A stretch of 46,345 nucleotides of DNA from the IMG/VR virus record IMGVR_UViG_3300031370_000003; one strand, given 5' to 3'. This DNA is from a virus (Duplodnaviria > Heunggongvirae > Uroviricota > Caudoviricetes). Within the stretch, counting starts at the first letter, position 1, and each line of letters opens with the position of its first letter. Below, piece by piece: positions 1,770 to 44,526 of this stretch. Position numbers and translations under genes: made by a program. The notes under the pieces are model-generated. The model saw only the letters and a program-made list of their open reading frames with translations, did no database searches and was not told the DNA's origin.

Positions 1770-1798
1770 TTGATAGGTGGTCAACTACCTACTATCAT
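1770..1798 (+). promoter_or_regulatory. Sigma70 promoter of nrdA with motif-A operator (1774-1791) in the spacer
   Basis: TTGATA-17-TATCAT enclosing TAGGTGGTCAACTACCTA. Confidence 0.7.
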
Positions 1799-1801
1799 GA
1801 C

Positions 1802-1826
1802 GGCCACTATATGTAGTGGCCTTTTT
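1802..1826 (+). terminator. Hairpin plus T-run upstream of nrdA (terminator or attenuator)
   Basis: GGCCACTA-TATG-TAGTGGCC-TTTTT. Confidence 0.55.
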
Positions 1827-1839
1827 ATTGGGAAAACAC

Positions 1840-4164
1840 ATGATTAACATTCAGAAACGTGACGGGCGATCGGAGCCACTGAGCGAAGATAAGTATAACC
1901 GCGTGGTAATGTGGGCGGTCGAAGGCGTTGAAAACGTCAGTGCATCAGCCATTGCCCTCGGTGCTTCTGCCAGCATTTTTGACGGCATGACCACCAGCCA
2001 GTTGCATGATGCGCTGGTGAAAGCCGCAGCTGATTTGATCAGCCCGGAAACTCCGAACTACTCCCAGGTTGCAGCCCGTCTTAATCTGTTCAAAATGCGC
2101 AAAGATGCGTTTGGTCAGTACGAATACCCCGACCTGTACATGCACATCGTGAACCTCGTAAATCGTGGCATTTACGATGAAGATTTGTTGAAACGCTATC
2201 ATCCAAACGAAATCAACGAGCTGGGCAAATATCTCGATACCGCTCGCGATGATCTGTTTGGCTACGCGGCCACCGTGCAGCTGCAGGGCAAATATCTTGT
2301 CCAGAACCGCGTCACTGGAAAAATTCACGAAGCACCGCAACACATTTATATGCTGGTGGGCATGTGTCTGTTCCAGGATTGGCAGGACGGCACCAGTGGT
2401 AAAACTCGTCTGGAAATGGTCAAAGGCTTCTATGATGTCACCAGTACATTCAAGCTCTCATTGCCAACCCCAATCATGGCAGGCGTTCGCACACCGACGC
2501 GCCAGTTCTCAAGCTGCGTACTGATTGAATCTGGCGACAGTCTGAAGGCCATTAATGGTACAGCTGCCGCGATCGTCGATTACGTTTCTCAACGTGCCGG
2601 CATCGGCATTAGCTTTGGCCGCATCCGTGCGCTGGGAAGCGAAATCCGTGGTGGCGAAGCGACCCACACTGGCGTTATCCCGTTCCTGAAGCACTTCCAG
2701 ACAGCCGTGAAATCCTGTTCGCAGGGCGGTGTTCGTGGCGGCGCAGCTACTGCGTATTATCCGTTCTGGCATCTGGAAACTGAAAGCCTGCTGGTGCTGA
2801 AAAACAACCGCGGTGTGGATGAGAACCGTGTACGCCATCTTGACTACGGTGTGTTGCTGAACCGTCTGATGTACCGCCGTCTTATTCGTGAAGAGAACAT
2901 CACTCTGTTTAGTCCGAATGATGTGCCTGGTCTGTATGACGCTTATTTCGAAGATCAGGATCTGTTCGAAGAGCTTTACCTGAAATACGAGGCTGACCCG
3001 GCTATTCGCAAGAAGAGTGTTTCTGCCGTTGAGCTGTTCTCTTCCATGATGCAGGAGCGCGCCTCTACCGGTCGTATTTATATCGGCAACGCTGACCACA
3101 TGAACGAGCATAGCTCCTTCATCCAGAGCATTGCGCCAGTGCGTATGTCAAACCTGTGTGCTGAAATTACGCTGCCAACCAAACCGCTGGTGAAAACTGA
3201 CGATCCCAACGGCGAGATCGCTCTTTGCACACTGTCGGCGTTTAACCTCGGCGCCATCGATTCTCTGGGTGACCTGCAGGAAGTCGCATTCTTTGCAGTC
3301 GCGGCACTCGACTCACTGCTTGATTACCAAAACTACCCAATGGAAGCCGCAGAGCGTGGAGCAAAAGCGCGCCGCAGCCTGGGTATTGGTGTAACCAACT
3401 TTGCGTATTACCTGGCGAAGAATGGCTTTAAATACTCCGATCTCGAAGGCAACAAGCTTGTTCACGAAACGTTTGAAGCGATTCAGTATTACCTTCTGGA
3501 CGCCAGCTGTAAATTAGCTGAAGCGAAAGGCGCGTGTGAGTGGTTCGACGAAACCAAATACTCTCTCGGCCAGCTGCCAATTGACCATTATCGCAAGTCC
3601 CTGGATGGTCAGGAGATCAATGCGAAGCATCCGCTGCTACTCCCATGGGAACAGCTGCGCCACCGCATCAAAGTGCATGGTCTGCGTAACTCTACGCTTA
3701 CAGCTCAGATGCCGTGCGAAACGTCGAGCCAGATCACCAACTCTACGAACGGCATCGAGCCGCCGCGCGGCGCTGTGTCCATCAAATCCTCCAAAGAAGG
3801 CGCCATCAAAATGGTTGTGCCTGATTTTGAGAACCTGAAAGGGCAATACGAATACCTGTGGGATATGCCGAGCAACTACGGCTATCTGACCAAAGTGGCA
3901 ATCATTCAGAAGTTCTTCGACCAGTCTATTTCGACCAACACGAACTATGACCCTGAGCGCTTCCCTAATGGCAAAGTCCCAATGGAAACGCTGCTTGATG
4001 ATCTGCTCACCGCCTACCAGCTGGGCATTAAAACTCTCTATTACCACAACACGCGCGACGGTGCCGGCCAAACGGAAGACACCAGCGATGTGACCAGCGC
4101 GCTCCAGGCTAATCAAGAGCCAATTCTTGACGACGAGCCTGATTGCGACACCTGCACCATCTAA
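1840..4164 (+). CDS. nrdA: Class Ia ribonucleotide reductase alpha subunit
   Basis: ATP-cone start MINIQKRDG, LPTPIMAG, active-site NLCAE, TLYY tyrosine pair, C-terminal CDTC. Confidence 0.97.
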   Translation: MINIQKRDGRSEPLSEDKYNRVVMWAVEGVENVSASAIALGASASIFDGMTTSQLHDALVKAAADLISPETPNYSQVAARLNLFKMRKDAFGQYEYPDLYMHIVNLVNRGIYDEDLLKRYHPNEINELGKYLDTARDDLFGYAATVQLQGKYLVQNRVTGKIHEAPQHIYMLVGMCLFQDWQDGTSGKTRLEMVKGFYDVTSTFKLSLPTPIMAGVRTPTRQFSSCVLIESGDSLKAINGTAAAIVDYVSQRAGIGISFGRIRALGSEIRGGEATHTGVIPFLKHFQTAVKSCSQGGVRGGAATAYYPFWHLETESLLVLKNNRGVDENRVRHLDYGVLLNRLMYRRLIREENITLFSPNDVPGLYDAYFEDQDLFEELYLKYEADPAIRKKSVSAVELFSSMMQERASTGRIYIGNADHMNEHSSFIQSIAPVRMSNLCAEITLPTKPLVKTDDPNGEIALCTLSAFNLGAIDSLGDLQEVAFFAVAALDSLLDYQNYPMEAAERGAKARRSLGIGVTNFAYYLAKNGFKYSDLEGNKLVHETFEAIQYYLLDASCKLAEAKGACEWFDETKYSLGQLPIDHYRKSLDGQEINAKHPLLLPWEQLRHRIKVHGLRNSTLTAQMPCETSSQITNSTNGIEPPRGAVSIKSSKEGAIKMVVPDFENLKGQYEYLWDMPSNYGYLTKVAIIQKFFDQSISTNTNYDPERFPNGKVPMETLLDDLLTAYQLGIKTLYYHNTRDGAGQTEDTSDVTSALQANQEPILDDEPDCDTCTI

Positions 4165-4254
4165 GCGTGGGGCAGCCGCCCCACCGTCTCCAATCAATTG
4201 AACACCTGTGCCAGCGCATCACAATGCTGGCACGTAAAACAACGAGGAAAACAC

Positions 4255-5388
4255 ATGAGCCAATATTCAACGTTCCGGCTTGGGGCGAACGACGCGACAA
4301 AAGAACCTATGTTCCTTGGCCTGTCAGTAAACGTATCTCGCTATGACCAGCAAAAATATCGCCTGTTTGAGAAGCTGATCGAGAAGCAGCTCTCTTTCTT
4401 CTGGCGCCCTGAAGAAGTGGACATTTCTAAAGATCGCATTGAGTTCAACAACAAACTGCAACCGCATGAGCGACACATCTTCCTGAGCAACCTCCGTTAC
4501 CAAACTCTGCTGGACTCCGTACAGGGTCGCAGCCCGAACGCTACATTGCTGCCGCTGGCGTCCATTCCAGAGCTGGAGACGTGGATTGAAACGTGGTCAT
4601 TCTCAGAGACCATTCATAGCCGCAGCTACACGCACATCATTCGTGGCATGGTCGATAACCCGGCTGAAATTTTCGACGGCATTGTGAGCGATGAAGAAAT
4701 TGTGAGCCGCGCCGCATCGGTTACTGAGCAGTATGACGCCCTGTATCAGCTGATCTGCGCTCGCGAGTATCTATCAGAGCAGGAAGGCCGTTTTGATGAG
4801 ATTTATGGCGAACTTGCCATGGAGAAACAGGTTTACCGCACCCTGGTAGCAGTAAACGCTCTGGAGGCAATCCGCTTCTATGTCAGCTTCGCCTGCACGT
4901 TTTCTTTTGGTGAGCGTGGACTACTGGAAGGCAATACAAAAATTATGCGCTTCATCGCGCGTGATGAGGCTCTGCATTGTCACTCTACAGAAATGATGAT
5001 CAAGTACATGCGCGTCGGCAAAGAGGGTGAGCAGTGGAAGGCTGTGGCTGATGAGCTTGAGCCCTTTGTTTACCAGACCATGAAGGACGTGGCTGAGCAG
5101 GAGATGCGCTGGGCAGAACACCTTTTCAAAGATGGCTCTATGATCGGCCTCAATGCAGAAATCCTGAAGCAGTATGTGAAATATCGCACCAACGTTAGCC
5201 TGCGTCGCATGGGGCTTAAGCCAATTTTCGAAGATGCTTTGAATGATCCACTGCCGTGGATGAACAAATGGCTGCTGAGTGACCAAGTGCAAGTGGCGCC
5301 GCAAGAAGTTGAGGTTAGCTCATATCTGGTTGGGCAGATCGACTCAACGGTGAGTTCGAAGAGCCTGAAGAAGTTCGCCGACATTTGA
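4255..5388 (+). CDS. nrdB: Class Ia ribonucleotide reductase beta subunit
   Basis: FWRPEEVD, ETIHSRSY (iron ligands and radical Tyr), RDEALH, C-terminal SSYLVG. Confidence 0.97.
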   Translation: MSQYSTFRLGANDATKEPMFLGLSVNVSRYDQQKYRLFEKLIEKQLSFFWRPEEVDISKDRIEFNNKLQPHERHIFLSNLRYQTLLDSVQGRSPNATLLPLASIPELETWIETWSFSETIHSRSYTHIIRGMVDNPAEIFDGIVSDEEIVSRAASVTEQYDALYQLICAREYLSEQEGRFDEIYGELAMEKQVYRTLVAVNALEAIRFYVSFACTFSFGERGLLEGNTKIMRFIARDEALHCHSTEMMIKYMRVGKEGEQWKAVADELEPFVYQTMKDVAEQEMRWAEHLFKDGSMIGLNAEILKQYVKYRTNVSLRRMGLKPIFEDALNDPLPWMNKWLLSDQVQVAPQEVEVSSYLVGQIDSTVSSKSLKKFADI

Positions 5389-5470
5389 TGAATTTACGTG
5401 TTGGATGCCTACGTCCAACACGTTACTATGTTGAAAATAAAGTGATTGTTTATATAAATAAGGAAACAAG

Positions 5471-6328
5471 ATGTTTACTGGCATTATGGACAAAGTGAAG
5501 CTGTTCGGTGACAAAGTTGTCGGCTTCAAGCCAGATCTTTACGAGCTGCATCCGGGTTATGGCGATCATACTCTGGACATCTATGAGATGGTTAACCAAT
5601 TCCACGGGCTGTTTCAGCATCCTCAGCGTATAGCTGCAACACCGGCGCTGCTTCGCTTACGTGCAAAACTTATTCGCGAAGAAGCTGTTGAAGAAGGCAT
5701 CCCAGCTGCCGATAACTCAAATTTAGAGAAGATATTGGATGCGATGGCCGACTTCCTCTATGTCGGTATTGGCACTATGGTGGCGATCCGCGGCGGCGCA
5801 CCTATGGGGATGAGTATTTATACCCAGGATCAAAGCGTAGGTCGATTCCATGAGACTTTGTCTATGACTTCCGCAGCGATCGATGATGTGAAGCTACCGT
5901 TTTATGAAGCTGGCAAAGTCGCTGATGAGCTTGAGGCTCTTGCGACCAAAATTGAGTCAGAGAATTTGTCAGAAGGTGCTCTTATTAACGAGCTGCGCCG
6001 AGTCCTGAACATGCTTTATGTCGCCTGCAGCATGACCTATCGCCTGGCTGATTTAATGGACATCAACATTGTAGAGCTGGTGGCGGAAGTTCACCGTTCC
6101 AACATGACGAAGCTGTGGCCGGGTGACGATGCAGAGCGGGCTGTGGCGGTGGATCGCTGCCAGTACGACCATTCAGATCTGGGCTTCCGTGCTTGTGAAG
6201 GTACTGATTTAAGAATCGGATTCCGCATCTCAGATGGCAAAATCCTCAAGTCACCAACCTACAGTGAAGCTGATCTGGTTGGCTTTGTTGCGACGGCTAA
6301 GACGTCTACTATTGTGAAGGAATTATGA
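5471..6328 (+). CDS. MazG/PRA-PH-like all-alpha NTP pyrophosphohydrolase (possible dUTPase)
   Basis: LIREEAVEE...DAMADFLYV...EVHRSNMTK pattern; directly upstream of thyA. Confidence 0.75.
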   Translation: MFTGIMDKVKLFGDKVVGFKPDLYELHPGYGDHTLDIYEMVNQFHGLFQHPQRIAATPALLRLRAKLIREEAVEEGIPAADNSNLEKILDAMADFLYVGIGTMVAIRGGAPMGMSIYTQDQSVGRFHETLSMTSAAIDDVKLPFYEAGKVADELEALATKIESENLSEGALINELRRVLNMLYVACSMTYRLADLMDINIVELVAEVHRSNMTKLWPGDDAERAVAVDRCQYDHSDLGFRACEGTDLRIGFRISDGKILKSPTYSEADLVGFVATAKTSTIVKEL

Positions 6329-6410
6329 AGATGCGCCTTGTAGTTAAATGGCTATAAAGGTATATTTGATTCTTATGCGAAATAAACCTTATCAGAATAT
6401 CTGATTTATA

Positions 6411-6437
6411 GGCGCCCTTCTGGGCGTCTTTTTTTTT
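6411..6437 (+). terminator. Rho-independent terminator
   Basis: GGCGCCC-TTCT-GGGCGTC followed by T9. Confidence 0.75.
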
Positions 6438-6491
6438 GCTTTTAAGTTATAGGGTTGCTTTGATGGCGCTCTTTTTTTACTTATTATAAGA

Positions 6492-6509
6492 TAGGTATTC
6501 ACATACCTA
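6492..6509. promoter_or_regulatory. Motif-A palindromic operator upstream of thyA
   Basis: TAGGTA-TTCACA-TACCTA, extended to GATAGGTA...TACCTATC. Confidence 0.65.
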
Positions 6510-6523
6510 TCAAAGAAACCAAG

Positions 6524-7609
6524 ATGACAAGTTTACTCAACAAACCTTTCACTAATGGCCTGGCGACGGATTACACATACCGTTCAGTAATTAGCCGGGT
6601 TCAATCAGAAGGCATGGCCTCTGGCGACAGAACTGGAACCGGCACAAAAGGAACCTGTTTCTTAGCAACCGATTACCTGCTGACTGGTGCATCAGTGCCA
6701 CTTGTTTCCAGCAAAAAAACCAACCTCAAACCTCTTCTGGTTGAGCTGGAGTGGTATCTCAAAGGCACTGGCAATATCGGCTTCCTGAAAGAGCATGGCG
6801 TCAAAATCTGGGACGCATGGGCCGATGAGAACGATGACCTCGGGCCGGTCTACGGAAAGCAATGGCGCAGCCTGGAAGACACCCGGATTATACTTAGCAG
6901 CGATCTACAAAAATATCTTGAGCGCGGTTACTTGCTTGAAACTGAAATCGACGACAAACGTTCCCTTGTCACCAGAAACGTTGACCAGTTGGCGCGTATC
7001 GTTAACACGCTTCGCACTAACCCATCCGATCGCCGAATGCTGATGAGTGCATGGAACGTGGCTCAGCTGGAAGACATGGCACTGCCACCTTGCCACTTTG
7101 CGTTTTACGTGTGGAGTCGTGAGCTGGATTTCCCAACCCGTTTGTCGATGGCGAGTGATGTCGGCCGGACGCACTCTCAGTACGGGCATGAAAGCATGTA
7201 TAGCCGCCTGCTTGAGCTGCTGGATTCTGGCACTGAGATTAATGACGAGCTGATGGACAGCCTGGGTATTCCAAAGCGAGTTCTTTGCTCTACGGTAATG
7301 CAGCGCAGCGTTGATGTGTTTGTCGGTATGCCTTTCAACATTGCTGGGTACGGCATCCTGACTCACTTCATTGCCCAAATTACCGGCCACATGGCCGCGT
7401 CTCTGACTCATTACGGATGTGACGTCCATCTCTATGACAATCACCAAGAGGCGGTTGAAGAACTTCAGGCGCGCGAGATCCCCAAAAGCTCTGACCCGGT
7501 GGTCATCCTTCCCGAAGCATGGGAAGAGATTGACGATTTCCGCTGGGATGGCGTCGTGGTTGAAGGCTATGAACCACTGCCATGGATCAAGGTTCCGGTG
7601 GCGGTGTAG
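6524..7609 (+). CDS. thyA: Thymidylate synthase
   Basis: DRTGTGT, IWDAWAD, YGKQWR, catalytic LPPCH, QRSVD, PFNIAGY, DVHLYDNH. Confidence 0.95.
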   Translation: MTSLLNKPFTNGLATDYTYRSVISRVQSEGMASGDRTGTGTKGTCFLATDYLLTGASVPLVSSKKTNLKPLLVELEWYLKGTGNIGFLKEHGVKIWDAWADENDDLGPVYGKQWRSLEDTRIILSSDLQKYLERGYLLETEIDDKRSLVTRNVDQLARIVNTLRTNPSDRRMLMSAWNVAQLEDMALPPCHFAFYVWSRELDFPTRLSMASDVGRTHSQYGHESMYSRLLELLDSGTEINDELMDSLGIPKRVLCSTVMQRSVDVFVGMPFNIAGYGILTHFIAQITGHMAASLTHYGCDVHLYDNHQEAVEELQAREIPKSSDPVVILPEAWEEIDDFRWDGVVVEGYEPLPWIKVPVAV

Positions 7610-7611
7610 CA

Positions 7612-8028
7612 ATGGCCAGGGGAATGATTGTTTTTTGTGAGATCGACAATGTTTTGGCTGAGGTAAATCACCGCAGCTCATTGTCGGCCGAGGATGATCG
7701 TCTGGTAATGGGCGATGGTCTTATCTTCCCCACCAGCCGAATGCTCCGGGGCTTCATGCGCTCCGGGGCAGAAATTGCTTTGGTTTCAAATCGCTCAGCC
7801 AAATTGAGTGAGGCTACGAAGCAATGGCTAAAAGGGGCTGGCATTGATTACGACTGGCTTTACTTCGGCGGAATGACGCCCAAGTACGGAGCTTTTTTGA
7901 AAAAGACTTTGCAGGAGCATCGGGTCGATCGACTTATTGCAGCGGTAGGCGCCAGCCAAGAGTTTGTCAGCGTAATGGCAAGCCACCCAAACCGCCCTGT
8001 TTGTTATGTCGTCCGAAAGGGAGAGTGA
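7612..8028 (+). CDS. HAD-superfamily phosphatase-like protein (PNKP-type), degenerate motif I
   Basis: IVFCEIDNVLA in place of DxDGTL; VSNR motif II; TKQWL...IDYDWL. Confidence 0.6.
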   Translation: MARGMIVFCEIDNVLAEVNHRSSLSAEDDRLVMGDGLIFPTSRMLRGFMRSGAEIALVSNRSAKLSEATKQWLKGAGIDYDWLYFGGMTPKYGAFLKKTLQEHRVDRLIAAVGASQEFVSVMASHPNRPVCYVVRKGE

Positions 8029-8030
8029 CC

Positions 8031-9157: not shown

Positions 9158-9218
9158 GTGTTGAACCCCTCTCGTGGTGCGCAACAATACGCGCACCACA
9201 TGATCACGGAATACAAGC

Positions 9219-10177: not shown

Positions 10178-10188
10178 CCTTGCACAAT

Positions 10189-10205
10189 GGCCGCGCTAAG
10201 CGGCC
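10189..10205. terminator. Hairpin between convergent genes
   Basis: GGCCGC-GCTAA-GCGGCC. Confidence 0.55.
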
Positions 10206-10594: not shown

Positions 10595-10754
10595 ACTTAA
10601 ATTAAATTTTATAGAGAGGGGATAACTATGTTAAACCAACCTATGACGGTTTCAAAATATTTCTGAGCCTAACTTAATTGCTTTTTCCCCTAACTCAGTT
10701 TGGCAAAATAGTTGTCATCACGAAGTACATTTAAAACAAAGAAAGGAAAAGCAC

Positions 10755-11558
10755 ATGTCCAACGCAGCCCAAACAAACGTTTCTGATCTCGATGCTCTGT
10801 CTGCGATCTTGGCATCCCTTGATGAAACCCCAGCCGCCGCTGACAGTCAGATGAAAGGCATCGATTCTTTGCTCGATGAGCTGGAAACGAACGCAGCTGA
10901 GGCCGCCACATCGACACCAGAGAGCATCGCGGCAAAGATCGAAAACGAATTACCGGTTACGCCAGCTGCTGCTTCAGGTGATATGGAACAGGTGATCATT
11001 GATTTAGAAGAGTCGAACACGGCCACACCGCCAGAGAAATCAACGGAGATTTTGGCCGGTGGCGAAGAGAATATTCTCCCGGTGATAGAAGAACCGGCCG
11101 CACCTGAAGTTCAGGAGGAAAAGCAACCTGAACCTAAGCCTAAAAAAGCCAGCACACCTCGTGGTGCTCGATTCACCTTTGACGGTAAGGACGATGCCTT
11201 CTTTGAGAAAGCTGGCCTGCAGCGCGAGGATTTCATGAAGTGCTACAACGAGGCTCCAGTGAAGGCAATGGACAAAATCCAAAACATTATGCACTGGTTC
11301 AGTGGTGGCCCAGATCTGAGCGTGTATACCCGTATTTCGTTACACTCATTAATCGCTGACAAAACGGCCAGCAGCAATAGCCTCAAATTGGCTATGATGA
11401 GCTATCCAGAGAAGCCCTATCCAGTTGGCACTGCCTCCACTCAGGCTGGCCAAATGATGGCAGTATTTCCGGCGCTGGGTATCGCTGAGAAAGATGGGAA
11501 ATCGTTAACCCTTAATGCTGATTCTCCTATCGTCAAAAAGTTTATGGCGGAAGAGTAA
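10755..11558 (+). CDS. Hypothetical protein with acidic low-complexity N-terminus and putative wHTH C-terminus
   Basis: RBS AAGGA; D/E-rich N-terminal half; C-terminal TQAGQMMAVFPALGIAEK. Confidence 0.8.
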   Translation: MSNAAQTNVSDLDALSAILASLDETPAAADSQMKGIDSLLDELETNAAEAATSTPESIAAKIENELPVTPAAASGDMEQVIIDLEESNTATPPEKSTEILAGGEENILPVIEEPAAPEVQEEKQPEPKPKKASTPRGARFTFDGKDDAFFEKAGLQREDFMKCYNEAPVKAMDKIQNIMHWFSGGPDLSVYTRISLHSLIADKTASSNSLKLAMMSYPEKPYPVGTASTQAGQMMAVFPALGIAEKDGKSLTLNADSPIVKKFMAEE

Positions 11559-12146: not shown

Positions 12147-12194
12147 TTGCGAACGGAAAAATAATTTGCGATCATGTAGGTAGTTAACTACCTA
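12147..12194 (+). promoter_or_regulatory. Promoter of dam with a perfect motif-A operator at 12177-12194
   Basis: TTGCGA-17-GATCAT (TG extension) followed by TAGGTAGTTAACTACCTA. Confidence 0.7.
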
Positions 12195-12206
12195 CCGAGA
12201 ATTATC

Positions 12207-13238: not shown

Positions 13239-13270
13239 AATAGTAACGCTGTTAAATAGTCATTTAGCTA

Positions 13271-14459: not shown

Positions 14460-14495
14460 TAAGTAGTTGACTACCTACATTTAAAATATTAAATT
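14460..14495 (+). promoter_or_regulatory. Motif-A operator (14460-14477) overlapping the -35 of a sigma70 promoter
   Basis: TAAGTAGTTGACTACCTA; TTGACT-17-TAAATT. Confidence 0.7.
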
Positions 14496-26790: not shown

Positions 26791-27129
26791 ATGAACGAAT
26801 CAATGTCTGATTTCCGCGAGATCACCAAAGAAGAGTACAACGATTATGAAGAGCTGGTGGATGGTAACTTTACTGTCATTGATGCGCGTTGGGTGGTGAG
26901 CATCGACATGCGCGATGATGAGCCAACCTTGGTCATTGCAGATTGGAGTAATGGCGATAGTGATGACGTTGGCTCGTTGTTCGATATGAGTCATGCTAGT
27001 GGTGAATATTACAAAACCCTTAAGCGTCGCTATTTCACTGGATGCCAAGCGACTGACGCAATCTGGACAACTTATCTCGACCTCGTTGCTCATCGTGATG
27101 TAGAAGCATTCCTCAAGTCATTCGACTAA
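26791..27129 (+). CDS. Hypothetical acidic protein
   Basis: RBS AAGGA; terminator at 27129-27148. Confidence 0.7.
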   Translation: MNESMSDFREITKEEYNDYEELVDGNFTVIDARWVVSIDMRDDEPTLVIADWSNGDSDDVGSLFDMSHASGEYYKTLKRRYFTGCQATDAIWTTYLDLVAHRDVEAFLKSFD

Positions 27130-27170
27130 GCCCCAGATGGGGCTTTTTGCATTGGTTAGCGCCCTTCTGC

Positions 27171-27199
27171 TTGTAAGTAGGTAACTACCTATCTAAAAT
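27171..27199 (+). promoter_or_regulatory. Promoter with motif-A operator (27174-27191) in the spacer
   Basis: TTGTAA-17-TAAAAT enclosing TAAGTAGGTAACTACCTA. Confidence 0.7.
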
Positions 27200-32693: not shown

Positions 32694-33218
32694 CTAAAAC
32701 GGAATGATGCGGTCAACCCAATCAAATAGCACCACCAGCTGCTTGCCGCCATCTTGCCTGACATTCAATTGGCCGGCATTGACACCTGCAGATCGCCCCT
32801 CAATTTCTCTACCATCTGCCATGTAGACACGGAGTAGCTTTTCGTTTTGGTGCGCCTTGCGGCAAATCTTGAAGAAGTCTCGCTTTGATGGCTGGTTCAC
32901 CAACTCATCTGCGTTTATGGTCAGCCTTCCCACATAATCAACCTGAACATCTGATGGATTGATGGTTTCAATTACGGCCACGCGCTCAAGAGGTACACGA
33001 ACCCGGTGTTCGTTGTCCGATGAGGTAGGGGTTAAGTCGAGTTTGTTACGTGCTGTTAGAAGCCCATATACGTACAGAGAGAAAACTTGGCCATCCTCCA
33101 GAGTTACCCTTACAGGAATCTGCTTGGCGCGGTAATACTGCAATGATCTCTCGACATCTTTGTAATCGCGAGGCCAGACCTCAGCGGGAATGCCATATGT
33201 AATGTCGGTGATAGTCAT
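32694..33218 (-). CDS. Hypothetical protein with two Sm/Hfq-like repeats
   Basis: VRVTLEDG...VPLERVAVIE and LRVYMADG...VLFDWVDRII. Confidence 0.65.
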   Translation of the reverse strand: MTITDITYGIPAEVWPRDYKDVERSLQYYRAKQIPVRVTLEDGQVFSLYVYGLLTARNKLDLTPTSSDNEHRVRVPLERVAVIETINPSDVQVDYVGRLTINADELVNQPSKRDFFKICRKAHQNEKLLRVYMADGREIEGRSAGVNAGQLNVRQDGGKQLVVLFDWVDRIIPF

Positions 33219-33319
33219 CTGGTGTCCGAATAAGTGTTTTGAGTAGGGTAACACGCAATTTAATTGAGGTGGGGGAGGTGCCGAGGTAGTGGGCTGGTCG
33301 AGACCAGCCCATTGTGAAG

Positions 33320-33625
33320 TTAAGGCTTCGGTTCTGGGGTGTTTGAGTGTTCCAAACCAGCGAGCAGAATATCCCGATCTTCTTCGGTCATGTCGGTGGT
33401 GTTGTACAGTTCAATAATCCTTTGTGCGGCTTTACTGGTGGCCATTGCCCTTTTCGAGTACCGCGCGAAGTCGGCCATATTTACTTCTGCGATGATCATG
33501 TCGATTACCTCAGACTTGGTCATCTTGACGCCAGATTCTTTGAGTTTATCTTTAAACGCTTCGACTTTGTCGTTAGCGCGAGGACTCAAAGCGACCTGGC
33601 AAAAAACAGGTTTTGGTTTTTCCAT
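33320..33625 (-). CDS. Putative ribbon-helix-helix DNA-binding protein
   Basis: VFCQVALSPRANDKVE...MTKSEVIDMII. Confidence 0.6.
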   Translation of the reverse strand: MEKPKPVFCQVALSPRANDKVEAFKDKLKESGVKMTKSEVIDMIIAEVNMADFARYSKRAMATSKAAQRIIELYNTTDMTEEDRDILLAGLEHSNTPEPKP

Positions 33626-35249: not shown

Positions 35250-35267
35250 TAAGTAGTTGGTTACTTA
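35250..35267. promoter_or_regulatory. Motif-A operator between the divergent helicase and ParB operons
   Basis: TAAGTA-GTTGGT-TACTTA. Confidence 0.6.
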
Positions 35268-35966
35268 ATGGATTATATCAAAAACATGGACGTAAAAATT
35301 AACATCTTGCAGGTGGAAGTAGGGCGACTGCAGCCAAACCCGTGGAATACAAACGCCGTGGGTCTTCAGAATTTTGAAAAGCTGAAAGGCTCAATCGACC
35401 GCCTGGGTTTCTTTAAACCGATCCTGGCTCGCGAGCTGCCAGATGGCTCATTCCAGATCCTCGGTGGTGAACACCGCTGGCGCGCAGCCATTGAGCAGGG
35501 CATTACCACTGTGCCAGTTATCACCGTTGGTCAGATCAGCGACGTGGTGGCAAAGCAAATGTCTCTCGTTGATAACGAGCGCTACGGTGAAGACGATCAA
35601 CTCTCTTTGCAGCGTCTGATTGAAGAAATCCAGTCAGAAACTGGCTTCAGCCTTTCAGAAATAGCCCCATTTGATGACGAGATGGCAGCGACACTGGCCC
35701 GAACTGCGGCTTTCGATATGGCGGAACTGGAGCGACTGACTGATGGCGACGAGAAAGCGGCAGAAGAGGATAAACGCGAGAAGGTTGAGCGTTTGGGTGT
35801 GGAGCACCAAACGATGCGCTTCAAAGTCACCTTCGACTCTGCTGATTCAGTCACTACAGCCATTAAATCGATCATTGCCGAGCAGGGCATTAATACTGGC
35901 AGCGACATGGAAGACGCTGGAGAAGCCCTGGTGTGGCTCGCAGACTTTTACAAGGAACGTAACTGA
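35268..35966 (+). CDS. ParB/Srx-domain protein 1 (alternative start 35286)
   Basis: LQPNPWNTN, GFFKPIL, ILGGEHRWRAA, DNERYG. Confidence 0.88.
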   Translation: MDYIKNMDVKINILQVEVGRLQPNPWNTNAVGLQNFEKLKGSIDRLGFFKPILARELPDGSFQILGGEHRWRAAIEQGITTVPVITVGQISDVVAKQMSLVDNERYGEDDQLSLQRLIEEIQSETGFSLSEIAPFDDEMAATLARTAAFDMAELERLTDGDEKAAEEDKREKVERLGVEHQTMRFKVTFDSADSVTTAIKSIIAEQGINTGSDMEDAGEALVWLADFYKERN

Positions 35967-36643
35967 TGAGCACCCCATTTGAGATCGTGTATCTCGACCC
36001 TAAAACTCTGGTTCCATATGAGGCCAATGCCAAAAAACACGACGAAACCCAGATTCGTGATTTGGCTGCGGCAATTTCCAAGCGTGGATTTGACCAGCCA
36101 ATCACCGTTGATAAAGACATGGTGATCATCACCGGCCACGGCCGCCGAGAAGCTGCAATTTATGCAGGGCTTGACCTGGTGCCGGTAATTATCCGAGCCG
36201 ATCTCGACGAGGTCTCTGTTCGTGCGAAGCGTCTGGAAGACAACCGTCTGGCCAGTACCGATTACGATGCCATCAAGCTGCAAAAAGAGCTTGAAGAGCT
36301 GGTGCTGGGCGACGAGGTGGTGATTGGCTTCGACGAGCGTGAGCTGAGCGTTTTGGTTGGTAGCATGACGGAAGACATGGCCACCGACTCTCTGGTGATG
36401 GACTTGGGTCATGAATCCGTGCGCCAGCATGAAGAGCATGAAGAGATCTCCCGGGAAGTGGCGGAGTCAGAATTGCGAGTGATCGACGTGTTGGGCTTTA
36501 AAACGCTTCCCGCTGGCTCTGCGCTGGTTGTTGGGGATTTACTTGCCCACATGGAAGAAGTGACGGGAGAGAGCGGGGCAGAAGCATTTGTGGCTTATGC
36601 GAAGCGTGTTTCTGAAGAAGCTGTCGATGAGGAAGGGGCATGA
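35966..36643 (+). CDS. ParB/Srx-domain protein 2
   Basis: LVPYEANAKKH, GFDQPITVD, ITGHGRREAA, LEDNR. Confidence 0.88.
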   Translation: MSTPFEIVYLDPKTLVPYEANAKKHDETQIRDLAAAISKRGFDQPITVDKDMVIITGHGRREAAIYAGLDLVPVIIRADLDEVSVRAKRLEDNRLASTDYDAIKLQKELEELVLGDEVVIGFDERELSVLVGSMTEDMATDSLVMDLGHESVRQHEEHEEISREVAESELRVIDVLGFKTLPAGSALVVGDLLAHMEEVTGESGAEAFVAYAKRVSEEAVDEEGA

Positions 36644-37819: not shown

Positions 37820-38706
37820 ACGACGTAACCATCAAACGCTACAAGCCTGAAGAGTTTCCGAAGCATTTGGATTTTCTGGAGCGTATGACTGTGACGCGCG
37901 GCACTGTGGATGATTGGAATGCTTTGAAGTCGCTGCATTATAAAACTGACGGCAAACCATTCGCACCAACCTATTACCGCTGCGAGCTTGATGGTCGGCT
38001 GGTGGGCGTTGTTGTTGTGGCTTTTCCAAAACTGCTTCTGGCGCCGCGTCACCGCATGTTCCCCAAACTGAAGCCCACCACTAACACGACGGTGGCCAAT
38101 CAGTTCTGGGGGCGTTACGTGAACAACAATTTCGCTGTGATCAGCCGTTCAGTGGTGGACACCCAATACCGTGGCGTGGGTGTTTCATATCGCATGATTA
38201 ACCTGGTGAGCCGAATGCACAACAGGCCGATCATCGAAATCCAGTCCTCGATGAGCAAATACAACCCGTTTGCGATGAAGGCAGGCTATCAGTTTATTCG
38301 ACCAGAGCGTCCGAAGAGTTACGAAAGTGCGCTGCGCGTATTCCATCGGCATTTCCGTGCCGACCCGGGCGACAATGAGAGCATTGTGAAAGAGCTGTTC
38401 TCTATGAGCGAGAATCGCCGCCGCCGCGCGCTGGTGGATCTCGTTGCCGACTACCACAAGAACTCATCGTTGGCGAAAGCTGGGCGCAACCGAGGCACAA
38501 CCGTTCAAGACATCGCCGATTCTCTGGTGGATGAAGCCAGTATCGTGAAATTGCTGAAGGACATTCACAACCTTAGCTTTACTTCGCCGCTCTATGGTGT
38601 TTACCGCAACCCGGATTTTGGCAGGGATTTGCCTGACGTGTTGCCACTACTGGCATTCGACAACCAACCATTAAATGCGCCGCTGGATCTGGCGCGTATC
38701 TCGTAA
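37816..38706 (+). CDS. GNAT-fold acyltransferase (possibly Mom-like)
   Basis: ISRSVVDTQYRGVG motif A; NPFAMKAGY motif B. Confidence 0.8.
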   Translation: MNDVTIKRYKPEEFPKHLDFLERMTVTRGTVDDWNALKSLHYKTDGKPFAPTYYRCELDGRLVGVVVVAFPKLLLAPRHRMFPKLKPTTNTTVANQFWGRYVNNNFAVISRSVVDTQYRGVGVSYRMINLVSRMHNRPIIEIQSSMSKYNPFAMKAGYQFIRPERPKSYESALRVFHRHFRADPGDNESIVKELFSMSENRRRRALVDLVADYHKNSSLAKAGRNRGTTVQDIADSLVDEASIVKLLKDIHNLSFTSPLYGVYRNPDFGRDLPDVLPLLAFDNQPLNAPLDLARIS

Positions 38707-38718
38707 GGAAGCGAGCAA

Positions 38719-38985
38719 ATGATTTTGACAGATAAGCAGAAAGATATTCTGCGCACCATTTACCTTGGCCACGATCGCGGCCATTTACTTGACCTCGATG
38801 AGCTGCTGGAGGTTCTTCCATACAAAACCACAAAGCAGAGTATGCAGTTCTCTCTTCGAGCGCTGATTAAAAAGGGACTTGTCGAGAAAGGTGAGTTTCG
38901 TGCGCGTGGAGATGATGGCTACCAGCGACGCACACTCGGTCTGACCGTTATGGGTAGAGCAAGCGTAAAGCTGATGGTGGCATGA
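38719..38985 (+). CDS. Winged-helix DNA-binding protein
   Basis: LTDKQKDIL...SMQFSLRALIKKGLVEK...LTVMG. Confidence 0.75.
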   Translation: MILTDKQKDILRTIYLGHDRGHLLDLDELLEVLPYKTTKQSMQFSLRALIKKGLVEKGEFRARGDDGYQRRTLGLTVMGRASVKLMVA

Positions 38986-38990
38986 GAAAG

Positions 38991-39043
38991 ACCTGCTTCC
39001 CATAAATAATTAATGGCTGGTTATTTAAATATACAGAAGCAGG
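38991..39043. repeat. 55-bp inverted-repeat element, copy 2
   Basis: ACCTGCTTC-N36-GAAGCAGG upstream of the terminase small subunit. Confidence 0.7.
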
Positions 39044-39158
39044 CTTTTAACCACTCCCCAATTAAGTTGTTTTCTAACTGTTGAAACCAATTTGTTTAGC
39101 AACTCCAGAAATGATTTTACTCGGCGCAAGGAAGCGCCGTGGTGGTTTAGAGGGAACT

Positions 39159-39797
39159 ATGACGACCGAAGCTGAAGAGGTAAAGGTCAAGGTCACGCCA
39201 GCTATGTGGGCGGAGATCGAGGCGAAATGGGCGTCCGGCGAGTACACGCTTTCAAGATTGGAAGACGAGTATGGGCTGCGCCGCGAGACCTTCTCTCGTT
39301 ATTTCAAAAAGAAGGGTTTGGCCAAAGGAGCCGACTCAGTTGGCAAGATGGTGCGTGAATCCCTGAAGTCAGACGCAGAGATCCGCGCTAAAGAGCGCGC
39401 CGACAAAATTGATGATCGTCGTAACAAGTATGACAGCTGGGCATTCACTCTTGGCAGAATGGCGATGGGTCAGGTTGCCGAGGCAAAGTCCAAAGGCACA
39501 TCGCTTGCTGTAATCGAGGGCGATCTAAAGTCAATTCAGCGCGCCAGCAATATTCTGGCTAAGTGCTTTGATGTGTCATCCAAAGCCCTGGGCATGGATA
39601 AAGACGAAGGTTTGGCCGACGAAATCCCGAACCTGGTGTTCGGCGAATTGACACCAAATCAGGTGGCAGAGCTGCGTAAATCAGAAGAACCAGATCTGAT
39701 TGACGATGATGAGCTTGAGGCACTTGAAGAGGAAGCAGCAAAAGACGCTGAGAGCGTTTTGGAGAGTGAAGCTGACGATGATAGTGGGGAAGCATAA
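39159..39797 (+). CDS. Terminase small subunit (probable)
   Basis: N-terminal HTH, helical oligomerisation region, acidic tail; directly before terL. Confidence 0.75.
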   Translation: MTTEAEEVKVKVTPAMWAEIEAKWASGEYTLSRLEDEYGLRRETFSRYFKKKGLAKGADSVGKMVRESLKSDAEIRAKERADKIDDRRNKYDSWAFTLGRMAMGQVAEAKSKGTSLAVIEGDLKSIQRASNILAKCFDVSSKALGMDKDEGLADEIPNLVFGELTPNQVAELRKSEEPDLIDDDELEALEEEAAKDAESVLESEADDDSGEA

Positions 39798-39799
39798 CC

Positions 39800-41056
39800 A
39801 TGGCCATCCCGTCATCGCTGAGCTTGATTCAGCTGCATTCTGGGCAGATGTCAGTGTTCCAATCACCCCATCGTTTCAAAGTGGTGTGTGCTGGCCGACG
39901 CTGGGGTAAGTCTCGACTGTCAATTTCTAAAATTATTCGTGCGGCCGCTTCTGGCCGCAAACAGCGTGTTTGGTACGTAGCGCCAACGTATCAGATGGCC
40001 AGGCAGATTTTGTGGGATGACCTTCAGGAGACAATCCCGCGCAAATGGGTGGCTAAAAAGAACGACACCACAATGACGATCGTTCTCAAGAACGGTTCGG
40101 AAATTGCACTAAAAGGTGCGGATAAGCCAGATACATTGCGTGGTGTTGCGTTGAACTTTGTCGTGCTTGACGAGTTCCAGGATATGAAGCCTGACACCTG
40201 GTACAAGGTATTGCGTCCAACGCTGTCTTCTACCCGCGGTGGTGCGCTAATTATCGGCACACCGAAAGGCTTCTCTGAGTTCCATAAACTTTGGACGATC
40301 GGGCAAAACGAAGATTTGCAGAAGAAGGGACAGTGGAAGAGCTGGCAGTTTGTGACAGCCGATTCACCCTTTGTTCCAGAGGCGGAGATCGAAGCCGCGC
40401 GGAATGATATGGACCCTAAATCATTCGCTCAGGAATACCTTGCGTCGTTTGAGAACATGTCAGGTCGCGTGTATTACCCGTTCGACCGCAAAACGCATGT
40501 TAAGGATGTGGCCTTTAATCCGAAGCTGCCTATCTGGGTTGGTCAGGACTTTAACATCGATCCAATGTCCTCGGTCATCCTGCAGCCGCAGCCGAATGGT
40601 GAAGTTTGGGCGGTGGATGAGCTGGTGCTGTATTCTTCAAACACCGCAGAGGTATGTGATGAGCTGGAACGCCGGTACTGGCGATCGAAGTCTCAGGTAA
40701 CAATCTTCCCAGACCCTGCAGGCGCATACCGACAACATGCGCGCGGTGAATCGGATGTGGACATCTTTAAGGAGAAGGGTTTTCTGCGCATCGATCACCC
40801 GAAGAAGCACCCGCCGATCGCTGACCGTGTGAATGCAGTAAACCGTATGCTGATGACCGCGTCTGGAGATGTGAGACTTTATATCAGCCCGAAGTGTAAG
40901 GGACTGATTGAATCGCTGGAAAAGGTGATCTACAAACCGGGTTCGCGTGATATGGACAAGTCAGGTGGTGTAGAGCATAGCGCTGACGCCCTCGGCTATC
41001 CAATTCATAGAAGATTTCCGGTTAAAAGTCGTGTTATTCTTGGTGGCTCACGATAG
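39800..41056 (+). CDS. terL: Terminase large subunit
   Basis: AGRRWGKS, VVLDE, IGTPKG, nuclease GQDFN and HSADA. Confidence 0.95.
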   Translation: MAIPSSLSLIQLHSGQMSVFQSPHRFKVVCAGRRWGKSRLSISKIIRAAASGRKQRVWYVAPTYQMARQILWDDLQETIPRKWVAKKNDTTMTIVLKNGSEIALKGADKPDTLRGVALNFVVLDEFQDMKPDTWYKVLRPTLSSTRGGALIIGTPKGFSEFHKLWTIGQNEDLQKKGQWKSWQFVTADSPFVPEAEIEAARNDMDPKSFAQEYLASFENMSGRVYYPFDRKTHVKDVAFNPKLPIWVGQDFNIDPMSSVILQPQPNGEVWAVDELVLYSSNTAEVCDELERRYWRSKSQVTIFPDPAGAYRQHARGESDVDIFKEKGFLRIDHPKKHPPIADRVNAVNRMLMTASGDVRLYISPKCKGLIESLEKVIYKPGSRDMDKSGGVEHSADALGYPIHRRFPVKSRVILGGSR

Positions 41057-41071
41057 GTGGTCAGCTACCTA
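41054..41071. promoter_or_regulatory. Motif-A operator between terL and portal
   Basis: TAGGTGGTCAGCTACCTA; begins at the terL stop codon. Confidence 0.6.
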
Positions 41072-41110
41072 TATTAAAGCGGTATTTATATTAAATTGGG
41101 GTTTGGTCAA

Positions 41111-42679
41111 ATGGAATTGACTGACAAAGTAATCAAGGATCTGGTTAAACGCCGGCATCCTGAGTACGAAAAGAAAAAGGAGCATTGGGACTTTATTTCG
41201 GCCACCTACGCGGGTGGCCGGGCATGGTTCGATGACAACGTTTTCCGCTATTTCAAAGAAGGTGATCAGGAATACAAAGAACGTGTAGAGCGAGCATACC
41301 GCTTCAACCACACGCGTGAAGTTGTAAACCTGATCAACAAATACATTTTCCGCGAAGATATTCACCGCACTGAGGAAGATGCACCAGAGTTCATCCGGGA
41401 TTTCTGGCGCCGCGCGACTCGTCAAAACGTTTCCGTTAACGAGTTCATGGCCGCCATCGATCTGCAATCCTCCATCTATGGGCGAATTTGGGTTGTGGTG
41501 GATAGCACAATGGAAGCTGGCGCTGAGTCGGTTGAAGACCAGAAGAAGCAAGATGGCCGCGCCTACGCTTACTGGATTTCACCGCAGCAGATGCTGGATC
41601 TGGCATGGGATGACGACGGCAATTTACTGTGGGCGCTGGTGGTGGAAGTCGCCCGTGATGATGCCGACCCGTTTGCTTCTACCGGACAGGAGTTCCAGCG
41701 TTATCGCTTGTGGACTCAAAACGAATGGTATCTGTTCCGCGAAGAGGTGAAGAAGGGTGGTCAGAAAGGTAATGCTAAGGTTTACCTCGAAGATAGTGGT
41801 GAGCATAACCTGGGTGTTGTGCCGGTGTTCCCCGTTGACTGTATTGGTCAAAGCGAATCGCCATACTTCAGCCCATCGCTAATTGATGACATCGCTTACC
41901 TTGACCGTGCGGTGGCCAACTACCTGTCGAACCTTGATGCAATCATTCAGGATCAGACCTTCTCCCAGCTGGCGATTCCAGTTCAGGCAATGCTGCCTGG
42001 CGATGAGAACCACGGCAAGGTATTGGAAATGGGAACTAAACGAGTGTTTACCTTTGATGGTGAAGGTGGCTCGCAGCCGTTCTACATGTCGCCAGACCCG
42101 AAGCAAGCCCAGATGATCATCACCACGGTTCAAACTGTCATCAACGAGATTTATCACTCTGTTGGTGTTGCCGGTGAACGAACTAAGCAGGACAACGCCA
42201 AGGGCATTGATAATTCATCTGGCGCAGCCAAAGCATACGACTTCCAGCGCGTGAATAGCTTGCTGGTGACGAAAGCTGAACGTCTGGAACGTGCAGAGCG
42301 CCAGATGCTTGCCCTGGTTGGCAAATGGATGGGTGAAGAGCTGGAAGACGATCACACATTGGTTAGCTACCCGGAGAGTTTCGACATCCGTGGTTTGACT
42401 GACGAATTTGCTGTTGCTCAGCAGTTATCAGAGTTGCAGGCGCCGGAAAGTGTTCGTCGTTATCAGATGGAAATGCTCATCGATAAGATCTTCCCGAACG
42501 TCACGGAGAAAATGAAAAAGGAATTTGAGGCAGATCTCTTGAAATTTCCTCCAAAAAATGTATCTGTGGGTATTGAAAATAGGTTGTCAACTACCTATGA
42601 TAAGGCATCTTCTCAAGAAACCGAGAATACTTCTTCCCAAGGATCAGGGAACTCATCTGCTCAAGCAACCGAGCGATAA
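41111..42679 (+). CDS. Portal protein
   Basis: ~520 aa after terL; SPP1-type layout. Confidence 0.85.
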   Translation: MELTDKVIKDLVKRRHPEYEKKKEHWDFISATYAGGRAWFDDNVFRYFKEGDQEYKERVERAYRFNHTREVVNLINKYIFREDIHRTEEDAPEFIRDFWRRATRQNVSVNEFMAAIDLQSSIYGRIWVVVDSTMEAGAESVEDQKKQDGRAYAYWISPQQMLDLAWDDDGNLLWALVVEVARDDADPFASTGQEFQRYRLWTQNEWYLFREEVKKGGQKGNAKVYLEDSGEHNLGVVPVFPVDCIGQSESPYFSPSLIDDIAYLDRAVANYLSNLDAIIQDQTFSQLAIPVQAMLPGDENHGKVLEMGTKRVFTFDGEGGSQPFYMSPDPKQAQMIITTVQTVINEIYHSVGVAGERTKQDNAKGIDNSSGAAKAYDFQRVNSLLVTKAERLERAERQMLALVGKWMGEELEDDHTLVSYPESFDIRGLTDEFAVAQQLSELQAPESVRRYQMEMLIDKIFPNVTEKMKKEFEADLLKFPPKNVSVGIENRLSTTYDKASSQETENTSSQGSGNSSAQATER

Positions 42680-42697
42680 GGCGTAAAAAGGAATTTT

Positions 42698-43597
42698 ATG
42701 AATCTGTGGCAAATGATGATGGTCAATCGTGGCCTGATGGACGTCGCTGGCAAGGAAGAGCTGGGCGGTGGCGGTGGCGGTGAACCTTCCAAAGAGCAGC
42801 AGGCTGAGCAGCCTGGTGGCGAAGGCAAGGAGCACAACCTAGGCACTGATGACGTACATAAACAGGCACGTCAGCCGGAAACTGAAGACGAATACGCAGG
42901 TCTGTCGCAAGAACAGCTGATCGCAAAGTTGCGTGACGCTAAGAAGTCAGGCGCTGAGCTTTTGAAAGAGAGCATGAAGCGCAAGGAAAAACTGGCTGCT
43001 TATGGTGACATCGACCCAGAACGTGCTCGTCAATTGGTGGACGCGGAAGCTGCGGCAGAACGTGCCCGTCAAGAAGCGGAGCAAACTGAGCTTGAGCGCC
43101 GCGGCGAGTTTGACGCGGTCAAAAAGCAAATGGTTGCCGCTCACCAAGCGGATCTGCAGGTAGAGCGTGACGCTCGAACTCAGGTCGAAGCTGAAAATGC
43201 CACTCTGAAGGCGCAACTGCTTGAGATGACCGTAGGTGCATCTTTCTCTGGTTCCGGTTTCTTGCGTGATAAGGCTCTGATGACACCGGCCAAAGCTCGT
43301 GTGATTTATGGCAACCACTTCGAAGTAGGCGAAGACGGCAGCGTAGTCGGTTATGACAAGCCTGCAGGTCAGAAAGACCGCGCGGTGCTGGTCGATGGCC
43401 ACGGCCAACCACTCGCGTTCGAATCAGCGATTGAGCGTATTTTACGTGCAGATCCTGAAGCCGATGCTCTGCTGCGAAGCGAAGCAAAACCCGGTGCTGG
43501 CTCACAAAGTAAGCCAAGCGCCAAAGTAACCACCCCGGTGAACAAGTCAACGATTGACAAGTTAACTGCGGGGCTGGGAAAAATCGTTACAAAATAA
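42698..43597 (+). CDS. Capsid scaffolding protein
   Basis: Acidic coiled coil with a PGAG-type C-terminal motif; between portal and capsid. Confidence 0.75.
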   Translation: MNLWQMMMVNRGLMDVAGKEELGGGGGGEPSKEQQAEQPGGEGKEHNLGTDDVHKQARQPETEDEYAGLSQEQLIAKLRDAKKSGAELLKESMKRKEKLAAYGDIDPERARQLVDAEAAAERARQEAEQTELERRGEFDAVKKQMVAAHQADLQVERDARTQVEAENATLKAQLLEMTVGASFSGSGFLRDKALMTPAKARVIYGNHFEVGEDGSVVGYDKPAGQKDRAVLVDGHGQPLAFESAIERILRADPEADALLRSEAKPGAGSQSKPSAKVTTPVNKSTIDKLTAGLGKIVTK

Positions 43598-43623
43598 CAT
43601 CTTAATCAAAAGGAATTGAAAAG

Positions 43624-44496
43624 ATGCCATTACTGCGAGACGAAGCTGAAAAGCTGTCTAACAACGAACTGGAACAGGGCGTAATCGAAACTATCATCGA
43701 TCGCGATGACCTGTTTGCCGTTCTGCCTTTCATGAAGATCAACTCTAAAGCGTATCTGTACAACCGCGAAGATTCACTGTCTGAAGCCAGCTTCATTGAC
43801 GTGAACGATGTGGTTCCAGAAGGCGCTGCAACGTTCACCGAGCATGTGGCTAAGCTGCGTATTCTGGCTGGCGACGTTGACGTTGATAAATTCCTGGCAA
43901 CCACCATGGCCGACACCAATAGCCAGCTGGCTATCCAGGTTCGTTCCAAAGTGAAAGGTCTGGCGCGCGCATTCCGCCGCAACCTGATCCAGGGTGACTC
44001 CACCAAAGACGCCAAATCCTTTGACGGCATTGCCAAACTGATGGCTGCTGATCAGGGCATTGTTGCCAACGCTTCCATGACCTTCTCCATGCTCGATGAG
44101 CTGGTTGATGCCGTGAAAGATCTGGGCGCTGATTGCCTGATGGTTCGATCTGAGCATATGCGCGCCTACCGTGCGTTGCTGCGTACCGTAAACGTCGGCC
44201 CGTCTGAAGTGATGATCGAGAACTTTGGTCGTCCGATGCTGACCCACAACGGCATTCCGTTCATCGTGAACGACTTCATCCCTGTTGTTGACGGCGCTGC
44301 CGACATCTACGGCCTGCACCTGTCCGAAGAGAACGGTCTGACCGGTCTGTACGGTGGTGATAATGCCGGTATCGTGGTTGAGTCCATCGGCACCGTTCAG
44401 AACAAAGACGCCCTGCGTACTCGCGTTAAGTGGTACTGCTCTCTGGCGAACAAGCACGATAAAGCGATCGCAGCGCTGAAAGGCGTTAAGATTTAA
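43624..44496 (+). CDS. Major capsid protein (HK97 fold)
   Basis: 290 aa after the scaffold; GDVDVDKF and NGIPFIVND are typical. Confidence 0.85.
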   Translation: MPLLRDEAEKLSNNELEQGVIETIIDRDDLFAVLPFMKINSKAYLYNREDSLSEASFIDVNDVVPEGAATFTEHVAKLRILAGDVDVDKFLATTMADTNSQLAIQVRSKVKGLARAFRRNLIQGDSTKDAKSFDGIAKLMAADQGIVANASMTFSMLDELVDAVKDLGADCLMVRSEHMRAYRALLRTVNVGPSEVMIENFGRPMLTHNGIPFIVNDFIPVVDGAADIYGLHLSEENGLTGLYGGDNAGIVVESIGTVQNKDALRTRVKWYCSLANKHDKAIAALKGVKI

Positions 44497-44502
44497 TCTT
44501 AA

Positions 44503-44526
44503 TGATAGGTAGTTAACTACCTATCA
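44503..44526. promoter_or_regulatory. Perfect extended motif-A palindrome after the capsid gene
   Basis: TGATAGGTAGTTAACTACCTATCA. Confidence 0.7.

Follow-up and report, generated by a model that had tools for sequence, protein, structure and literature searches.

Dispersed 18-bp palindromes in an SSU5-type phage-plasmid are candidate operators of an element-encoded dimeric repressor

What is an 18-bp palindrome for, and which protein reads it, when it recurs mostly between the genes of a tailed-phage genome? The question is raised by the IMG/VR record IMGVR_UViG_3300031370_000003 (Caudoviricetes; 46,345 nucleotides, hereafter the window), in which a first-pass annotation had proposed that the palindrome TARGTA-N6-TACYTA (motif A) is a dispersed operator for a phage-encoded dimeric regulator. 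Sequence comparison with relatives showed that the window belongs to an SSU5-type phage-plasmid: across the head-gene region it shares 77% identity with Salmonella phage SSU5 and 75% with Escherichia phage Cyrano, and over the first 12 kb 94% with a Cronobacter plasmid of 109 kb. Such elements are frequently found in Salmonella, E. coli, Klebsiella, Enterobacter and Cronobacter, and 214 plasmid records matched some part of the window. A literature search found no account of lysis-lysogeny control in these elements, and a search that included the site sequences found no paper on motif A. Our analysis suggests that motif A is probably the DNA operator of a dimeric repressor encoded by the element, most likely an XRE-type, 434-Cro-like protein whose gene lies outside the window.

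Sites were located by exact pattern, by mismatch search of the perfect form and with a symmetrised position weight matrix (PWM), using 100 dinucleotide shuffles as the null. Six exact matches (6492, 12177, 14460, 27174, 35250 and 44506) were found against 0.00 expected, and the PWM returned nine sites at 20.5-30.6 bits, with 0.03 matches at 16 bits in the shuffles. The sole further PWM match was weak (14849, coding region, 16.0 bits), and a degenerate candidate at 13253 fell below the PWM threshold. All eight sites originally listed are present, although two of them (1774 and 41054) depart from the consensus at position 6, reading TAGGTG with two to three mismatches from the perfect form, and a ninth strong site at 42580 (TAGGTTGTCAACTACCTA), recovered when as many as three departures from the perfect form were allowed, had been overlooked. 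Seven of the nine are wholly non-coding in a window that is 90% coding by a greedy open reading frame (ORF) call; the site at 41054 overlaps the terL stop codon, and that at 42580 lies within the portal ORF. The sites hold neither the LexA box CTGT-N8-ACAG nor the NrdR box consensus, in agreement with the original description.

Seven full-length relatives (the Cronobacter plasmid, SSU5, Cyrano, G001, which is a circularly permuted relative of 110 kb, G002, G003 and G004) and an additional sample of 80 loci of ~20 kb each, centred on the packaging operon, were used for comparison, and everything described outside the window is read from relatives. Eight genomes together held 91 exact TAnGTA-N6-TACnTA sites (0.05-0.16 expected per genome), with 7-20 per full genome in the relatives against ~0.1 expected. 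Although non-coding DNA makes up only ~9%, it contained 81 of these 91 sites. The sites can be regarded as orthologous, since each retains its spacing from the gene that follows: they stand 46-50 nt before nrdA in the seven relatives and, again among relatives, ~15-19 nt before thyA, 12-14 nt before the dam-like methylase gene, 18-24 nt before the ParB-like gene, 101-102 nt before the scaffold-like gene and 47-59 nt before the gene that follows the capsid gene.

Positions are conserved, and the inner core changes by lineage in a concerted manner. The TARGTA-GTTAAC-TACYTA type occurs in the window, the Cronobacter plasmid, G001 and loci L020-L025, the TARGTA-AGTACT-TACYTA type in SSU5, Cyrano, G003, G004 and all remaining loci, and the TATGTA-N6-TACATA type in G002, whilst a Photorhabdus relative carries a fourth, AT-core form. 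Each genome is uniform for one of these three or four types, including at sites within the portal and cobT-like ORFs, and site 6 (35250) occurs in every lineage with the core typical of that lineage. That all sites of a genome change together points to one trans-acting reader with shifted specificity, and the presence of both window-type and SSU5-type operators on Enterobacter plasmids indicates that this reader is encoded by the element rather than by the host. A host-factor site was accordingly rejected, there being two operator types among elements of one host genus; on general grounds, ~20 dispersed single dyads at gene starts also fit poorly with repeats for recombination, packaging or an origin. 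In the cobT-like gene, the motif-A site falls in the acidic linker region in both the Cronobacter plasmid (L011, 23648) and SSU5 (L014, 43662), each with its own core.

Five of the nine sites overlap plus-strand sigma-70-like matches in a consensus scan, with good -35 and -10 hexamers, spacers of 16-17 bp and 9-10 of 12 consensus positions matched. The scan reproduced the promoters first placed at 1774 and 27174, with the site in the spacer, and at 14460, with the site at the -35, and predicted none at 12177, where the site had been put at about +1. The register of site to promoter varies between spacer, -35 and ~+1, as that of operators does. Promoters so near to consensus would require a repressor rather than an activator, and a repressor bound in the spacer, over the -35, at ~+1 or at gene junctions of the late operon would block RNA polymerase. 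SSU5 keeps TTGAAA-17-TATGAT in its portal gene, with its own operator core, and the lineage-specific core at 42580 inside the portal ORF suggests that part of the portal C-terminal coding sequence is dictated by the operator. When -10 boxes were sought at a constant offset from the sites, peaks appeared at -5 and +16, but these are mirror images from the A/T-rich palindromic flanks and hold no oriented promoter signal.

We infer repression over activation from these placements, and consider it distinctly unlikely that the palindrome is instead a positive element through which a phage activator, like P1 Lpa or a MerR-type protein, switches on a temporal gene class. Such an activator would suit the dyad centres ~22 bp upstream of the predicted start at 1774, 27174 and 42580, the many late structural genes preceded by sites in relatives, and the retention of sites by lytically growing SSU5, which lacks the XRE protein. 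The promoters described above need none, however, the variable register speaks against it, several sites stand 12-19 nt from a start codon, too near to precede a transcription start point, and some have no downstream -10 box. P1 Lpa-type late promoters combine a -10 without a -35 with a 9-bp inverted repeat at about -22, whereas promoters at motif A have good -35 hexamers and variable register; no search for an Lpa homologue was made.

Terminators precede four of the sites, which would thus mark the starts of transcription units. Intrinsic-terminator-like hairpins also lie directly 3' of two motif-A sites, before nrdA (1802-1826) and after the capsid gene (44539-44563), and SSU5 and Cyrano keep this order, in which promoter and operator come first and the terminator second. 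Transcription from the nrdA promoter is predicted to start in the 5' arm of the first hairpin, in which case transcripts from this promoter may escape termination.

A palindrome upstream of start codons could also work at the RNA level, folding into a hairpin in 5' leaders or intercistronic stretches and serving as a translational operator for an FljA-family protein or as a processing or stability signal. Many sites do lie 12-25 nt upstream of start codons, six of the nine fold at -6 kcal/mol or better, and among the element's own proteins is a full-length member of the FljA family (PF03614, E 1e-61), FljA being a protein that blocks translation of fliC mRNA (PMC2652032). Among 137 distinct sites, however, the non-Watson-Crick positions of the stem, read on the transcribed strand, comprised 68 G-U pairs, 59 A-C pairs and 120 other mismatches; a selected RNA hairpin should favour G-U, and since G-U is not in excess there is no RNA-pairing bias. 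The half-sites are conserved as sequence, with T1, A2 and T5 almost invariant and no compensatory change. Predicted hairpin energies span -2.6 to -12.9 kcal/mol, with three sites folding no better than shuffles, site-to-start distances reach 130 nt, sites located in promoter spacers would stay untranscribed from those promoters, and motif-like sequence is absent from the fliC leaders of Salmonella, E. coli and Enterobacter. We therefore judge the RNA explanation very improbable and infer that the palindrome acts at the level of DNA. The FljA-family protein itself is conserved yet fast-evolving in all SSU5-type relatives, and may be a phage-plasmid-borne regulator of host flagellin.

If motif A is a DNA operator, its reader should follow the operator types. 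The original proposal of a dispersed operator for an element-encoded dimeric regulator is supported by the conserved positions, the concerted change, the promoter overlap and the lack of RNA-pairing bias, but the regulators that it nominated within the window are not: these candidates do not follow the motif types. For the ribbon-helix-helix (RHH)-like protein at 33320, the putative strand reads FCQVALS in the window and YCQVALS in Cyrano despite their different operator types, and differs among SSU5-type genomes, most of all in G003 with SCHLKLS. In the small winged helix-turn-helix (wHTH)-like protein at 38719, the likely recognition helix is nearly invariant across operator types, and the proteins at 10755 and 30056 gave no DNA-binding family match. 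Annotated regulators of the relatives (SSU5_054, SSU5_116, Ant, CYRAN_43, CYRAN_46 and CYRAN_116) are not conserved across motif-bearing genomes.

It is consequently unlikely that motif A comprises DNA operators for another element-encoded binder, be it the RHH-like protein, the wHTH protein, one of the ParB_N proteins in a KorB-like role or a small protein divergent from the XRE gene. In support of such a binder, site 6 stands directly before both the ParB-like operon and the operon of the helicase and RHH-like genes, and all of these proteins are present in SSU5, which keeps its sites in the absence of an XRE protein. The Cyrano homologue of the RHH-like protein, CYRAN_117, is expressed 12-fold above background in lysogens, with the helicase gene upstream of it not listed as expressed (PMC9928086). 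Against this stand the independence of the RHH-like strand residues from operator type, the near-identity of the likely wHTH recognition helix, and the composition of the ParB_N proteins, in which a domain search found only ParB_N and no HTH, and which have acidic tails and few, scattered type-specific columns.

The strongest candidate for the dimeric repressor is an XRE-type protein of 101-128 aa, encoded by every motif-bearing genome examined except SSU5. In relatives its gene adjoins the integrase gene and is divergent from a cobT-like replication operon, and motif-like sites occur upstream of it in every lineage; two of the best sites of the Photorhabdus relative lie in the divergent region of its XRE gene. 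The Cyrano homologue, CYRAN_45, is expressed 10-fold over background in lysogens (PMC9928086 Table 1). Matches to PHROG transcription regulators reached E 1e-7 at best, whilst Pfam HTH_3 was not detected in the protein. An AlphaFold2 model (predicted local distance difference test (pLDDT) 78, and ~90 over residues 11-80) has helices at residues 8-19, 24-30, 37-43, 51-61 and 65-76, a five-helix HTH fold resembling 434 Cro, 434 repressor, C.AhdI and Stl by Foldseek, with root-mean-square deviations of 1.7 A over 61 columns to 434 Cro (2cro) and 1.5 A to 1y7y at weak E-values of 0.02-0.1. Modelling as a homodimer gave a symmetric pair, with an interaction prediction score from aligned errors (ipSAE) of 0.42 compared with 0.01 for the best control; among proteins of solved structure, 20 of 30 pairs and 1 of 23 single chains scored as high. 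Contact agreement between dimer runs was at least 98% and partner pLDDT at least 82. The predicted interface is formed by the C-terminal helices and would leave the HTH free.

Within the recognition helix (residues 37-43), residue 41 varies with operator type. All window-type genomes, and no others, have N at this position, even where identity drops to 83% and 74%. The TATGTA type has I, whereas L was seen in G003, in a Serratia relative and in 72 SSU5-type loci, among which the helix comes in three variants. By alignment, residue 41 may correspond to Gln33 of 434 repressor, which contacts inner operator bases. Perfect LexA-box-like palindromes (ACTGTATGnATATACAGT) were observed in distant relatives only, beside XRE or integrase genes (L315:5786-5803 and L312:7439-7456), which hints that the SOS response may feed into the switch of some lineages.

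In the mechanism that we propose, the operator would be an 18-bp dyad, or 20-24 bp with its A/T-rich flanks, made up of two TARGTA half-sites and a lineage-specific inner core, and present about 20 times in each ~110-kb SSU5-type phage-plasmid, nine of them in the window. A dimeric repressor, putatively the ~126-aa XRE protein encoded beside the integrase (the CYRAN_45 homologue), would dock on this dyad, so that the genes for nucleotide metabolism, the methylase, packaging and the head stay silent during plasmid life.

Several observations weigh against this proposal. The consensus scan predicted no promoter at 41054 or 44506, and terminators follow two sites, which suggests that some sites differ from a simple promoter operator. 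The XRE gene itself is known here from relatives of the window. SSU5 has neither an XRE homologue nor an integrase, yet retains ~15 good sites, so that it either lost the XRE gene recently or its sites have another or an additional reader. The correlation at residue 41 represents few independent events; a simple one-residue recognition code was rejected because relatives bearing M have AGT or AT cores, and helix positions 36 and 38 vary inside one operator type. Finally, the XRE-adjacent sites of the window lineage resemble SSU5-type half-sites (TAAGTAAGT) rather than those of the window type.

Known systems offer partial parallels. P1 operators are asymmetric 17-mers, and the P1 repressor C1 is a larger protein not known as XRE-like, whereas motif A is a dyad and its candidate repressor resembles 434 Cro and has 126 aa. 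In P1, a single repressor, C1, acts at operators near many promoters over a ~100-kb plasmid prophage, its binding being required for lysogeny, and late genes need the activator Lpa (PMC8198154). Motif A and the C1 network share dispersed operators and the regulation of DNA-metabolism and methylase-type functions, but motif A also occurs throughout the late operon, which in P1 is Lpa-dependent. By analogy, the motif-A network may work like the C1 operators without being C1-type by sequence.

The stoperators of Cluster A mycobacteriophages, bound by repressors of the L5 gp71 type, number 20-30 per genome and are found in short intergenic gaps, inside operons and at promoters; they are asymmetric and orientation-dependent, block elongation, and their consensus diverges together with the repressor between lineages, giving rise to immunity groups. 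Motif A resembles them in its many dispersed sites and in site and lineage divergence, but it is palindromic and mostly placed on promoter elements, and the proteins are unrelated. The cI and Cro proteins of 434, P22 and lambda, which bind palindromes of 14-18 bp, are similar in the predicted five-helix HTH fold, the modelled symmetric dimer, the 18-bp dyad and the motif-like sites upstream of the candidate's own gene; lambdoid operators, however, are clustered at two control regions, whereas motif A comprises ~20 single sites genome-wide. KorB, a ParB-family protein, coordinates operons on IncP-1 plasmids through 12 OB palindromes, and ParB_N genes lie right behind one motif-A site, but a domain search of both ParB_N proteins yielded no HTH and they show no sign of following operator types.

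A possible, though tentative, extension is that the XRE protein and motif A constitute an immunity system with at least three to four specificity classes across SSU5/pHCM2-type elements, in which one small repressor would directly silence all of the ~110-kb genome, including the late operon, through ~20 operators, some of them within ORFs (portal, cobT-like) and changed together with the repressor, with a family-invariant palindrome, AAACAAnTTGTTT, as an independent control layer. The operator classes, the positional orthology, the test of DNA against RNA, the exclusion of in-window candidates and the XRE helix covariation are new here. Now that an operator is defined, a candidate repressor named and specificity classes predicted, the specificity residue, hetero-immunity and induction become testable, and the site set provides a ready map of transcription units. 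The family also offers a natural example of operators and repressor changing together at ~20 loci, even within coding sequence.

Table 1. Positions of motif-A sites, overlapping promoters and other features in the window.
Feature	Position	Strand	Context	Basis or status
Site 1, TAGGTGGTCAACTACCTA	1774-1791		49 nt upstream of nrdA ATG (1840)	PWM, 25.5 bits
Promoter TTGATA-17-TATCAT	1770-1798	+	Site 1 fills spacer; same register in SSU5 and Cyrano	10/12 consensus matches
Terminator-like hairpin with T-run	1802-1826	+	Between site 1 and nrdA; kept in SSU5 and Cyrano flanks	
Site 2	6492-6509		14-15 nt upstream of thyA start	Exact match, PWM
Promoter TTGATG-16-TATTAT	6460-6487	+	-10 ends 4 nt upstream of site 2, which covers ~+1	
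Site 3, perfect palindrome	12177-12194		12-13 nt upstream of adenine methylase (dam-like) start	30.6 bits
Site 4	14460-14477		Terminator 15 nt upstream	Exact match, PWM
Promoter with -35 TTGACT	14467-14495	+	-35 hexamer within site 4	
Site 5	27174-27191		Downstream of terminator 27128-27145	Exact match, PWM
Promoter TTGTAA-17-TAAAAT	27171-27199	+	Site 5 in spacer	
Site 6	35250-35267		64-bp divergent region between helicase operon (-) and ParB-like/packaging operon (+)	Exact match
Site 7	41054-41071		terL/portal junction; first TAG is terL stop codon	Mismatch search
Site 8	42580-42597		3' end of portal ORF; 100 nt upstream of scaffold-like gene	Mismatch search, PWM
Promoter TTGAAA-17-TATGAT	42573-42601	+	Internal to portal ORF 3' end; site 8 in spacer	10/12 consensus matches
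Site 9, perfect palindrome	44506-44523		9 nt past capsid stop; 15 nt before terminator 44539-44563	Exact match, PWM
FljA-family protein	32694-33254	-	Full-length	RNA-level alternative, disfavoured
RHH-like protein, phrog_1466	33320-33625	-	No Pfam match	Disfavoured reader
Two ParB_N-domain proteins (35268/35966)	35268-36643	+	Directly downstream of site 6	KorB-like alternative, disfavoured
Small wHTH-like protein, phrog_900	38719-38985	+		Disfavoured reader
DUF3800-like gene, 389 aa	31595-32764	-		
Second palindrome, AAACAAnTTGTTT	5464, 8496, 15678, 16395, 20886, 20937, 24291, 24316, 26264, 26764, 27695, 39085			At most 1 mismatch

The second dispersed palindrome has 12 matches in the window with at most one mismatch, against 0.2 expected, and precedes a gene set different from that of motif A. 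As a speculative suggestion, the near-invariant wHTH protein at 38719 could be a candidate for its reader.

Both the window and G001 have the DUF3800-like gene, which the Cronobacter plasmid and 79 of the 80 loci lack. Its ORF overlaps the FljA-like gene by ~70 nt, and it looks like an accessory insertion.

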